Origin: Escherichia coli
GTDB taxonomy: Bacteria; Pseudomonadota; Gammaproteobacteria; Enterobacterales; Enterobacteriaceae
Length of the DNA: 64,000 bases
Assembly: GCF_965641715.1 (NCBI RefSeq)
Contig: NZ_OZ282453.1
Direction: 5' to 3' (one strand)
Shown here: positions 15,001-18,000 of the stretch, piece after piece
How positions within the stretch are numbered: the stretch's first letter is position 1
How the letters are laid out: every line of letters starts with the position of its first letter
Made by a program: the position numbers

Positions 15001-18000
15001 GTGGCAGTCGGTGGCCGCACGGGGCTGACTGCGGTTGTGGTTGGCGTTATGTTCCTGTTGGTTATGTTCTTCTCACCGCTGGTGGCGATGGTTCCTCCTT
15101 ACGCAACCGCTGGAGCGTTAATCTTTGTTGGCGTGCTGATGACTTCGAGCCTGGCGCGCGTTAACTGGGATGATTTTACCGAATCGGTGCCTGCGTTTAT
15201 TACCACGGTGATGATGCCCTTTACTTTCTCGATCACCGAAGGGATTGCACTCGGCTTTATGTCGTACTGCATCATGAAATTGTGCACCGGGCGCTGGCGC
15301 GATCTGAACCTGTGTGTGGTGGTGGTCGCAGCTCTATTTGCACTCAAGATTATTCTGGTGGATTAGTAACTGGCGAGGGTTTCCAGATATCATGAGTTCT
15401 GATTACGCAGGAGAACTCATGATCTGGATAATGCTCGCCACGCTGGCGGTAGTGTTTGTGGTTGGTTTTCGGGTGCTGACATCCGGGGCCAGAAAAGCGA
15501 TTCGCCGTCTCAGCGATCGGCTGAATATCGATGTCGTACCCGTGGAGTCGATGGTCGATCAAATGGGAAAGTCAGCCGGTGACGAATTTTTACGTTATTT
15601 GCATCGTCCGGATGAGTCGCACCTGCAAAACGCCGCGCAGGTGTTGCTCATCTGGCAAATTGTCATTGTCGATGGTAGCGAACAGAACCTGCTGCAATGG
15701 CATCGGATTTTACAAAAAGCCCGCCTTGCCGCGCCGATTACCGATGCTCAGGTCAGGCTGGCGCTGGGTTTTCTGCGCGAAACTGAACCTGAAATGCAGG
15801 ATATTAATGCTTTTCAGATGCGCTATAACGCATTCTTTCAGCCTGCCGAGGGCGTTCACTGGCTGCATTAAAACCGCTTCGTCTTATCAGCCTACAGACC
15901 GCGCCTGACCTGTCGAGTGGATAAGGCGTTCACGCCGCGTCCGGTATCGGAACTGACAGTAGGTGAACGCATTATCTACGTTCTATTTACAGCAGCACAT
16001 CCAGCCCGTGTTTTTGCACAATGCTGAGCAGTTTTAATGAAATGCCATTGGGGCGTTTAGCGCCACTTTCCCATTTTTGTACAGTTGAAACGCTGGTATT
16101 GAGATAGTGAGCGAAGACGGGCTGACTCACTTTTAATTTTTCCCGCAGTGCTTTTATCTCAACAGGTTGTAAGTCTTGCACGTTGGTCAGGCAGGCTTTG
16201 TCAAAAGTACGCATTGTTTCGGCAGAAATAGCATCGACGCTGGACAATCCAGCCGCTGCGCTGTGAATAGCCTCAAATGCAGGACTTTTAAATTTAGTTT
16301 TTGCAGTCATAGCAGATCTCTGTCAGTTCTTTAGTGTTAATCATTGCTGTTAGCTGGGCTTTCGTCAGGAAGGCATAATGCTTTGCAAGTTCACGAAACC
16401 CAGCCAGTTCCTGACTATTGATGTTCGACATATCCTGTTTTGCATATAAAAACGTGTAAAACCAATTGCTTCCCCCTTTTGCCAGAATAATTGCACGCTC
16501 ACGATTTTGGTGAAGGCGCTTTTTAAAAACGCCACCACCAAGTGCATCAGCTTTACCTTGCTCCGTTTCTAAAATGGCCCGGCACAACTCTTCATCTGTT
16601 ATTGCATGAGACCTGGCTTCCCTTGCAAACCATTTGGTTTTAAACACGCGCATATCGTTGAGGTCCTGTTATTAAAGTATATCACCAAGTGCAATACTTT
16701 ATCCCTTATTCCCAACCCAATCGCGAAAATGCATATCAGCTTGCCCTATGATTTTTGTTTCTTCGAGCAGCCTCGAACTTTTCCCACAACACCGTAAAAG
16801 TTGCAAAAACGTTAAATGCGTCACACATTTCAATGTTAAAGTGGTCGGCTTTTCCCCTGAAACATGCCACGGGTAACACCATGAGTGAATTTATTGCCGA
16901 AAACCGCGGCGCGGATGCCATCACCCGACCGAACTGGTCAGCCGTTTTCTCGGTGGCGTTTTGTGTCGCCTGTCTGATTATCGTTGAGTTTTTGCCCGTC
17001 AGTTTGTTGACGCCAATGGCCCAGGATTTAGGCATTTCGGAAGGGGTTGCCGGGCAATCGGTGACCGTGACCGCCTTTGTGGCAATGTTTGCCAGTTTGT
17101 TTATTACCCAGACAATTCAGGCCACTGACCGCCGCTACGTTGTTATTTTATTTGCCGTTTTGCTGACGCTCTCCTGTTTGCTGGTTTCCTTTGCTAACTC
17201 ATTCAGTTTGCTTTTAATTGGTCGTGCCTGTCTGGGGCTGGCGCTGGGCGGGTTCTGGGCGATGTCGGCGTCGCTGACCATGCGTCTGGTACCGCCGCGT
17301 ACGGTGCCGAAGGCGCTGTCGGTGATCTTCGGCGCGGTTTCTATTGCGCTGGTGATTGCCGCACCGTTGGGCAGTTTTTTAGGCGAGCTTATCGGTTGGC
17401 GCAATGTCTTTAATGCGGCGGCGGTGATGGGCGTGCTGTGTATTTTCTGGATTATCAAATCATTGCCTTCGCTGCCAGGCGAACCCTCGCATCAGAAACA
17501 AAATACTTTCCGCTTATTACAACGTCCGGGTGTGATGGCAGGGATGATCGCCATCTTCATGTCTTTCGCCGGGCAGTTTGCTTTCTTCACGTATATTCGC
17601 CCGGTGTACATGAACCTGGCGGGATTCGGTGTGGATGGCTTAACGCTGGTGCTGTTAAGTTTTGGTATCGCCAGCTTTATCGGTACGTCGCTTTCGTCGT
17701 TCATTCTTAAACGTTCGGTAAAACTGGCCTTAGCAGGCGCGCCGTTAATACTGGCTGTGAGTGCGTTGGTGCTGACGTTGTGGGGAAGCGATAAAATCGT
17801 TGCTACCGGCGTGGCGATTATCTGGGGGCTAACTTTTGCATTGGTTCCTGTCGGCTGGTCAACGTGGATCACCCGCTCGCTGGCCGATCAGGCAGAAAAA
17901 GCCGGGTCTATTCAGGTGGCGGTTATTCAGCTTGCTAATACCTGTGGTGCGGCAATCGGTGGTTATGCGCTGGATAATATTGGTCTGACTTCGCCGTTGA

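Follow-up and report, generated by a model that had tools for sequence, protein, structure and literature searches.

The nearest solved structures for both proteins of the locus described here are those of HigB-2/HigA-2 from the Vibrio cholerae superintegron (PDB 5JA8, 5JAA and 8A0X). [quoted passage not shown] A second pair, ToxP/AntitoxP (CBUA0028/CBUA0027) of Coxiella burnetii, is borne by plasmid QpH1 and serves plasmid maintenance; ToxP toxicity, inhibition of translation, AntitoxP-ToxP binding and promoter binding have all been shown experimentally, the bound PtoxP region holding the palindrome TAGTTCAC-tta-GTGATATA (PMC10098735). HigBA2 of Acinetobacter baumannii pAB120, which we liken to these pairs by description only, has the same reverse gene order, a ribonuclease toxin and an HTH antitoxin whose autorepression uses the toxin as co-repressor; the pair stabilises its plasmid (PMC5906591). 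The toxin-first order, a RelE-superfamily fold and an HTH antitoxin are shared by HigBA of E. coli K-12 (YgjN/YgjM), Salmonella SehAB and Rts1 HigBA, but their toxins belong to other families (PF09907, PF05015); MqsR/MqsA is toxin-first as well.

The gene pair examined here lies between yicN and nepI in a window of 64,000 nucleotides from an Escherichia coli chromosome, with the large variable adhesin gene iatC just past nepI. We put at about 0.72 the probability that it is a chromosomal type II toxin-antitoxin operon of the HigBA-2/ToxP-AntitoxP family that was lost in K-12-type strains. Its genes are laid out as follows.

16294..16653, minus strand: toxin gene, 119 aa; PF06296 (HigB-2/ToxP family), RelE fold
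16651-16653, minus strand: toxin start codon ATG; RefSeq uses GTG at 16645-16647 instead
15987..16310, minus strand: antitoxin gene, 107 aa, ATG start; HigA-2/AntitoxP type, with a conserved N-terminal segment (about residues 1-45) and a C-terminal XRE-type HTH (about residues 46-105)
16294..16310, minus strand: overlap of 17 nt, in which the 3' end of the toxin gene covers the start codon of the antitoxin

Open reading frames of similar size are frequent by chance in the window, and many in the ORF list are spurious; these two are genuine genes. RefSeq annotates both, giving the toxin 117 aa from the GTG at 16647, and the ATG at 16651-16653 is the start kept in other genera (MR[VI]FKT). As expected of a type II operon, the genes are small, adjacent, co-oriented and inherited as a pair, an antitoxin homologue standing directly downstream of the toxin homologue in 88 of 88 related loci. 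The 17-nt overlap is common to all Enterobacterales copies (toxin 5001-5360, antitoxin 5344-5667) and suggests that translation of the antitoxin is coupled to that of the toxin. The original prediction of a toxin-like frame followed by, and overlapping by 17 nt, an antitoxin-like frame thus agrees with the ORF list, and the toxin-first order that it noted extends to the whole set of related loci.

Profile searches likewise substantiated the predicted combination of a RelE/ParE-superfamily toxin with an XRE-HTH antitoxin: the toxin matches PF06296 along the whole profile (residues 1-113 on positions 1-120 of 120; 142 bits, E = 9.8e-42) and the antitoxin matches HTH_3 with E = 1.2e-7. V. cholerae HigB-2 scores 34 bits only against PF06296, over model positions 8-96. 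With Pfam profiles the toxin matches neither the Rts1-type HigB family PF05015 nor the K-12 YgjN-type HigB family PF09907, so the name 'HigB/HigA' given to the pair originally is apt in the HigBA-2 sense alone. No NCBIfam model matched the toxin and its match in PHROGs was weak; searches of the PDB by sequence, with the single sequence or a 36-sequence profile, returned nothing, HigB2 being missed at E up to 1. The link to HigB2 comes only from Pfam, the fold search and a weak profile-profile match in hhalign (probability 15.6%).

An AlphaFold2 model of the toxin (pLDDT 90) has the two N-terminal helices, antiparallel sheet and C-terminal helix of the RelE/ParE fold, and its closest fold is HigB2, followed by other RelE/ParE toxins. 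In the low-confidence hhalign alignment (15.6%), K44, R46, R53, Y70 and K72 are identical to the HigB2 active-site residues K49, R51, R64, Y82 and K84 (PMC5416850), and an active-site alignment drawn through Coxiella ToxP is consistent with the direct one. Among 36 diverse homologues, K44 and K72 are invariant, R46 and R53 are at least 90% conserved, and Phe takes the place of Tyr70 in many members of the family. HigB-2, at about 20% identity, lacks the conserved helix and strand with which the E. coli toxin ends (residues 95-119; E112 is invariant). ToxP, of the same Pfam family, aligns with it from end to end at 31% identity (E = 1e-18), C-terminal extension ending ELxEI included, and its gene likewise comes first and overlaps the antitoxin gene; it differs from the E. 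coli toxin in a six-residue GKGKRG insert in the beta2-beta3 loop.

The antitoxin carries a C-terminal XRE HTH homologous to that of HigA-2, its best solved relative (5jaa; phmmer E = 8e-10, residues 46-102 on 38-94), and is 55% identical to Coxiella AntitoxP over 104 residues; in PHROGs it matches phrog_2104 (E = 1.5e-26), a family of unknown function. The division of labour would be that of HigA-2, with neutralisation by the N-terminal segment and dimerisation and DNA binding by the HTH. Its first 45 residues are highly conserved (KFKSPAFEAIHSAA; H16, T32 and D37 invariant), and in an AlphaFold2 model of a toxin-linker-antitoxin fusion (linker pLDDT about 30) antitoxin residues 10-24 and 30-40 form helices at pLDDT values above 90. 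The HTH also resembles the C-terminal one of MqsA (PDB 3gn5), the match to MqsA_antitoxin (PF15731) being confined to that C-terminal part (positions 53-123). Against the MqsA family TIGR03830 the antitoxin scores 40.4 bits, below the cut-off of 61.8 and over the HTH part only, and the NCBIfam NadS and MqsA-family models match below their cut-offs only; unlike MqsA, it has a single Cys and no N-terminal CxxC...CxxC zinc ribbon. Salmonella SehAB was considered as an orthologue and ruled out: SehB, of 142 aa and with an N-terminal dimerisation domain, differs in architecture from the antitoxin, and at 46% identity to K-12 HigA it belongs to a different family.

Upstream of the toxin start, the control elements are predicted to be arranged as follows.

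16664..16667, minus strand: Shine-Dalgarno-like AGGA, 10 nt upstream of the toxin ATG
16676..16684, minus strand: putative extended -10 element, TGaTATACT, within the right operator arm, placed from sequence and conservation
16678..16696, minus strand: candidate operator, gene strand TATTGCAC-ttg-GTGATATA, a variant of the consensus TATAGCAC-N3-GTGCTATA
16673-16701: wider operator arms of 13 nt each (inverted repeat I3)

The candidate operator, the sole operator-like site near the operon, belongs to a family-wide palindrome, TAGCAC-N3-GTGCTA, kept in 85 of 88 loci from alpha-, beta- and gammaproteobacteria. Its CAC-N3-GTG core occupies a fixed site about -35 from the start codon in 85 of the 88, among 53 distinct 19-mers, and across the related loci the arms are conserved while the spacer is free. 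A single palindrome over the -10 element is thus a conserved sequence feature, and it matches the footprinted HigA2 operator in its 19-bp span and its placement, though not in sequence (TGTACGC-N5-GCGTACA in V. cholerae). The similar Coxiella palindrome lies within a TTGACA-17-TATAGT promoter. Strict consensus scans of 15850-16900 gave no promoter and no terminator, and the E. coli promoter was therefore placed from conservation, the equivalent of the -10 element, TGCTATAGT or TGCTATACT, being conserved across related loci; the -35 element (GGGATA, 18-nt spacer) is weak. At the Shine-Dalgarno-like site, ACAGGA is kept in nearly all Enterobacterales copies. The module and nepI share a control region of 227 bp.

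From relatives with 20-31% (toxin) and about 55% (antitoxin) identity, we infer toxicity, RNA cleavage, neutralisation and operator binding. One promoter with an extended -10 element would drive both genes, the antitoxin start being translationally coupled to the toxin end. Free toxin would enter the ribosomal A site and cut mRNA under translation, as HigB2 and RelE do, halting growth; the conserved N-terminal ~45 residues of the antitoxin would fold onto the toxin and neutralise it, and an HTH dimer on the single operator would block RNA polymerase, giving autorepression. Toxin would go free once the antitoxin is lost or degraded. More tentatively, the C-terminal strand of the toxin may occupy the edge of the sheet where the V. 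cholerae antitoxin strand binds, in which case neutralisation would work otherwise than by beta-strand sliding. Both this extension of the toxin and the operator common to the family are testable additions to the HigBA2 model. As a member of a known family, of the Vibrio HigBA2 and Coxiella ToxP-AntitoxP kind, the pair is ordinary and already annotated, and its practical importance is modest; in E. coli it represents the best-understood 'reverse-order' RelE family, and searches of open-access full texts, which covered its RefSeq protein accessions and the names yicN and nepI, yielded no experimental paper on it.

Among 5426 complete E. coli genomes, 1716 (about 32%) have the full module at this site and 3668 (about 68%), K-12 included, have one uniform empty allele. 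The comparison of the yicN-nepI spacer across strains proposed at the outset therefore shows that the pair is not present in all E. coli; carriers include O157:H7, O145:H28 and ST131 O25b:H4, and K-12 and the sampled B1-type strains are without it. The pair also adjoins nepI in Salmonella, Citrobacter koseri and C. amalonaticus, five Klebsiella species and two other Escherichia lineages, with constant orientation and distance to nepI across those genera; where yicN is a neighbour too, the pair stands between it and nepI. Synonymous differences, as a proportion (pS), come to 0.71-0.81 in the toxin-antitoxin genes, against 0.63-0.71 for yicN and 0.61-0.63 for nepI. Because the pair is nepI-adjacent across genera and has diverged at synonymous sites much as the flanking genes have, we read the K-12 state as a loss; these comparisons indicate that it is a single derived loss or replacement and not the ancestral condition. 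The place of the module next to nepI would predate the split of Escherichia, Salmonella, Citrobacter and Klebsiella, and the empty allele found today in K-12 and in some 68% of sequenced E. coli would stem from one event. Absence from K-12 is thus not evidence of insertion, the reference strain being in the derived state here. The module is a clean presence/absence marker in E. coli and, as K-12 is without it, that strain is a natural null background for testing it.

Whereas HigB-2/HigA-2 are integron-cassette cargo and ToxP is plasmid-borne, the E. coli module is a chromosomal resident at a fixed position across genera. We offer only tentatively, and think it on the whole improbable, that this HigBA2-type lineage is a long-domesticated chromosomal resident and not selfish cargo, a reading that draws on its long tenure next to nepI under strong purifying selection, on the nearly invariant operator and on the C-terminal extension of the toxin; were that so, the module would serve the host in some way that A/B1-type E. 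coli gave up in one event. About as unlikely is a reading that keeps the mechanism and changes the role, from stress-linked growth control to abortive-infection phage defence or the stabilising of neighbouring variable DNA. RelE/ParE toxins have been discussed as defence toxins (PMC11980606), plasmid relatives serve plasmid maintenance, a relative in Edwardsiella adjoins restriction-modification and mobile-element genes, and iatC is close by. On the other side, the toxin matches none of the families in PADLOC-DB 2.0 and the antitoxin only a generic HTH, weakly (RmrA, E = 6e-6), the module sits amid housekeeping purine-transport genes and not in a defence island, and defence cargo does not typically stay at one site through such long vertical descent.

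The active site bears on a different proposal, that the pair is a genuine toxin-antitoxin system whose toxin is not a ribosome-dependent mRNA endonuclease and would check growth by binding some other target, in the way that SehA reportedly inhibits RNase III. SehA, a HigB-like toxin of another family, has been reported to be without RNase activity, its critical residues lying within an extra C-terminal helix (PMC12817084), and this report is why we are cautious in passing from fold to activity. The conserved helix and strand that HigB2 lacks might mediate such binding in the E. coli toxin, and the frequent change of the catalytic Tyr to Phe within the family could be taken the same way. SehA, however, has an antitoxin of 142 aa related to K-12 HigA, all five HigB2 active-site residues are identical in the E. 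coli toxin, and ToxP, with the same C-terminal extension, inhibits cell-free translation and lost its toxicity in E. coli through a spontaneous Lys-to-Glu change at a predicted active-site lysine. We consider another target quite improbable.

We give equally little credence to the idea that Escherichia has attenuated or domesticated the module, its toxin being weak or poorly expressed, and keeps the pair mainly as a transcriptional regulator or neutral remnant. It would account for the one substitution in each arm of the Escherichia operator relative to the consensus, for the O157:H7/O145:H28 allele, in which the toxin ATG has become ATA and a GTG remains six bases downstream, for the absence of the module from two thirds of strains and for the control region held in common with nepI. 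It sits poorly with purifying selection on both genes (dN/dS 0.07-0.18 within Escherichia, the toxin included, and 0.03-0.08 between genera), with catalytic residues that are whole in every toxin allele sampled, with both frames being intact in the seven E. coli and two Escherichia-clade copies sampled, and with an operator-like site found solely at the module's own promoter.

The weakest alternative, a recent small mobile insertion into a spacer that was empty in ancestral E. coli, perhaps delivered in association with the REP element, draws on the module's presence in only 32% of complete genomes, its absence from K-12, a left breakpoint between two inverted REP copies and the mobility of the family elsewhere, but it is largely refuted by the shared position across genera and we regard it as very improbable, given also the flank-like synonymous divergence, the deep divergence among the nepI-site copies (toxin identity 65-78%), which the mobile clade does not show, the lack of any integrase or transposase ORF between yicN and nepI and of target-site duplications or direct repeats at the module borders, and an empty allele that is not a clean empty site. 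The 'small independent insertion' of the original prediction accordingly fails, and loss in K-12-type strains is the reading we retain; the accompanying statements, that the pair is absent from K-12 and that a REP-like element adjoins it, were both correct. K-12 matches the first 67 bases only, which are the REP element after yicN. The borders of the module are these.

15905..15982: inverted REP pair between the convergent yicN and antitoxin genes
~15905-15946: REP1, common to K-12 and the module haplotype, with an exact 20-nt REP core at 15919-15938
~15958-15982: REP2, partial and inverted, found only together with the module
15947..16786: segment specific to the occupied haplotype, 840 bp, replaced in K-12-type genomes by the 41-bp filler ATCTTTGCCCTGTTCCGTTTCGATCTTAACTCCAGCTCAAG

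The left breakpoint, 15946/15947, falls between REP1 and REP2, and the arms of the inverted repeat I1 that they form are at 15917-15933 and 15963-15979. Rfam returned sub-threshold matches only, the REP pair scoring 31 bits against naRNA4 (gathering score 59.5), and a sub-threshold match to a microRNA family is spurious. The REP-pair hairpin was considered as a terminator and set aside, its stability being indistinguishable from that of shuffled sequence (z = -1.0).

All the empty alleles examined agree in their junctions and carry one and the same 41-bp filler, which is present in 3668 genomes and nowhere else within those genomes; no further copies were found elsewhere in E. coli. Its best match is to toxin nucleotides 85-103 (16 of 19 positions with the window allele, 17 of 19 with that of L011), but this does not mark it as a module remnant, since that score is equalled by 45 of 1000 shuffles and approached by unrelated loci; against the nepI-proximal end of the 840-bp segment it gave no significant match.

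Beyond the nepI site, family copies occur on many plasmids, the best two 'plasmid' matches being records of about 5 Mb that are evidently chromosomes, and the single match in a phage collection is a mislabelled Salmonella chromosome contig. Near-identical copies are spread across Erwinia, Pectobacterium, Edwardsiella and Serratia, and a close relative in Edwardsiella adjoins the type I restriction-modification gene hsdM, an integrase fragment and IS5.

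The original prediction of a HigB/HigA-type toxin-antitoxin pair between yicN and nepI was right, and its ORF coordinates and description agree with the ORF list:

15419-15871, plus strand: yicN, one flank of the module
15919-15938: REP1, exact 20-nt core
15987..16310, minus strand: antitoxin ORF, 107 aa
16294..16653, minus strand: toxin ORF, 119 aa, upstream of the antitoxin ORF
16294-16310, minus strand: 17-nt overlap of the two ORFs
16881-18065, plus strand: nepI, the other flank

In the complete genome closest to the window, E. coli DSM 103246 (99.8% identity), the toxin is annotated as "type II toxin-antitoxin system RelE/ParE family toxin" and the antitoxin as "helix-turn-helix domain-containing protein". 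The exact window proteins occur on >1000 public contigs, with the RelE/ParE toxin name already given, and a full-text search of the open-access literature found no experimental paper on the module, which is an uncharacterised addition to a known family. The RefSeq toxin start is GTG 16647, and the start kept across other genera is ATG 16651-16653. The O145:H28 and O157:H7 alleles (loci L095 and L096) have ATA, with Ile first, in place of this ATG, leaving RefSeq's GTG, six bases downstream, as the sole nearby start; the toxin gene is otherwise intact, and the change could reduce toxin synthesis in this lineage.

Comparison across genera contradicts the further proposal that the pair is a small independent insertion. 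The same pair adjoins nepI, divergently transcribed and 213-227 bp away, in Salmonella, C. koseri, C. amalonaticus, five Klebsiella species and two other Escherichia lineages, and wherever yicN is adjacent the pair lies between it and nepI. Synonymous divergence (pS) of the toxin-antitoxin genes, at 0.71-0.81 between genera and 0.15-0.22 against the other Escherichia lineages, is similar to that of yicN and nepI, and dN/dS is ~0.1, as under purifying selection. Shared position, divergence in step with the flanks and purifying selection argue together against insertion; judged from these sequence comparisons, the copy at the nepI site is an old resident and the K-12 state a loss.

The module family is mobile in general, unlike the nepI-site copy. 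A separate clade with 88-97% protein identity, found away from nepI in Erwinia, Pectobacterium, Edwardsiella, Serratia and Tenebrionibacter (loci L013-L016, L018, L021, L030 and others; dS 0.2-0.7), indicates recent horizontal spread; the Edwardsiella ictaluri copy (L016, 4617-9326) has as neighbours a P4-type integrase fragment, an IS5 transposase and type I restriction-modification hsdM; and remoter relatives reside on many plasmids. Two ~1-kb contigs (L011 and L051) binned as 'Collinsella sp.', an actinobacterial metagenome-assembled genome, carry E. coli-type and Klebsiella-type copies with yicN or nepI fragments, and are most likely contamination of that bin.

Within E. coli, the window's 881-bp region is complete, and always chromosomal, in 1716 of 5426 complete genomes, the module carriers including O157:H7, O145:H28 and O25b:H4, while the K-12 spacer version is complete in 3668. 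In the latter, a 41-bp filler takes the place of window 15947-16786 (840 bp). Junctions and filler are identical in three phylogenetically different empty alleles, and the filler is confined to those same 3668 genomes, at this one place in each; its best match, toxin nucleotides 85-103, scores barely above shuffled sequence. By all appearances, module and filler are one biallelic polymorphism of single origin. The left breakpoint of the module segment lies between two inverted REP copies, REP1 and a partial REP2 that is present only together with the module. The soil isolate E. coli SC434 (L093, 1548-1560, against 2523 and 3048 of K-12 locus L001) has an independent 524-bp deletion that reaches from the post-yicN REP element to a point inside nepI, with loss of the nepI N-terminus and GCCTG microhomology at both ends; the yicN-nepI spacer is deletion-prone. 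The flank beyond nepI is also variable, since in K-12 nepI is followed at once by yicS and nlpA, in place of a 3511-aa ORF (18268-28803, plus strand) of many near-identical ~100-aa units, annotated in the closest genome as the inverse autotransporter adhesin IatC.

The module belongs to the HigBA-2 / ToxP-AntitoxP family, and falls outside the Rts1 HigB family, the K-12 HigB family and MqsRA. Its toxin matches the whole of Pfam PF06296 ("RelE", formerly DUF1044; E 9.8e-42), with nothing further in Pfam and no NCBIfam or PADLOC model. V. cholerae HigB-2 is assigned to the same family (PMC11980606), and its sequence from PDB 5ja9 matches at 3.3e-8, restricted to model positions 8-96 of 120. Neither the toxin nor a 36-sequence profile picked up HigB2 in PDB sequence searches, and the profile-profile match is weak, so the toxin is a distant HigB-2 relative inside a common family. 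In that weak alignment, toxin K44, R46, R53, Y70 and K72 are identical counterparts of HigB2 K49, R51, R64, Y82 and K84, of which the last four are needed for activity by mutagenesis and K49 is also counted (PMC5416850, PMC10098735). Alignment via Coxiella ToxP supports the same correspondence, and K44 and K72 are invariant across 36 diverse homologues. A C-terminal extension (helix 98-106 and strand 110-115, with invariant Glu112) is shared with ToxP but absent from HigB2. A 17-nt near-palindrome within the toxin gene (16507-16541; TTGGTGAAGGCGCTTTT / AAAAACGCCACCACCAA), which gave a spurious sub-threshold microRNA match in Rfam, spans the codons of the conserved GGGVFKKRL motif and is probably a coding-sequence by-product.

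The antitoxin carries a C-terminal XRE helix-turn-helix domain, its closest solved relative being HigA-2 (E 8e-10). This domain is similar to the C-terminal one of MqsA, whose zinc ribbon is missing here, as the antitoxin has a single cysteine; scores against the MqsA and NadS NCBIfam models fall under their cut-offs. Coxiella AntitoxP, 55% identical, experimentally binds ToxP and the toxP promoter (PMC10098735). Residues 1-45 are strongly conserved and helical (pLDDT >90) in a toxin-linker-antitoxin AlphaFold2 model, in which the linker is disordered.

Upstream of the toxin ATG, and separated from it by 19 nt, an inverted repeat (arms 16673-16685 and 16689-16701) includes two candidate control elements:

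16676-16684, minus strand: putative extended -10, window form TGaTATACT, inside the right operator arm, from conservation
16678-16696, minus strand: candidate operator, TATTGCAC-ttg-GTGATATA, one substitution per arm relative to the family consensus

Of 88 related alpha-, beta- and gammaproteobacterial loci whose upstream sequences were compared, 85 share a CAC-N3-GTG core at constant distance, with 53 distinct 19-mers. In the consensus, TATAGCAC-N3-GTGCTATA, the arms are conserved and the spacer varies freely, and the right arm also serves as the extended -10 (family form TGCTATAgT). We infer the promoter from this conservation, since strict promoter and terminator scans of the module region found nothing. 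Coxiella PtoxP, which AntitoxP binds (PMC10098735), has a right arm identical to the window's. The footprinted V. cholerae HigA2 operator, running from after the -35 across the -10 (PMC11006873), is likewise a single 19-bp inverted repeat in the same place, but its sequence differs.

Taken as a working model, a single autorepressed promoter would drive both genes, an antitoxin helix-turn-helix dimer would bind the operator over the -10, and the antitoxin N-terminal segment would neutralise a toxin that, by analogy with HigB2 and RelE, may cut mRNA in the ribosomal A site. Fold is no proof of activity: SehA, though HigB-like, is reported not to be an RNase (PMC12817084), although SehAB belongs to a different family from the window module.

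In most Enterobacterales loci (for example L013-L041, in the last 14 nt before the ATG) a conserved leader, ACAGGATGTCAGCCTG, with the toxin ATG directly behind it, holds a three-codon mini-ORF (ATG TCA GCC TGA) whose stop overlaps the toxin start (TGATG); that of C. koseri has four codons and overlaps as ATGA. Escherichia leaders (GGACCTCAACGAT) have no upstream ATG, and the mini-ORF is absent at window 16654-16667. A block, AAAGTTGCAAAAACGTTAAATGCGTCACA (16797-16825, plus strand), 56-84 nt ahead of the nepI start in the part shared with K-12, stands out as conserved among Escherichia, Citrobacter and Salmonella in an otherwise diverging spacer, and may be a nepI regulatory site. Coxiella CBUA0028, as annotated (151 aa), has 30 codons ahead of the conserved MRIFKT start (26086-26175 of the pQpH1 locus, L090); because these overlap with a perfect TTGACA-17-TATAGT promoter and an operator-like palindrome, translation probably does not include the annotated N-terminus.
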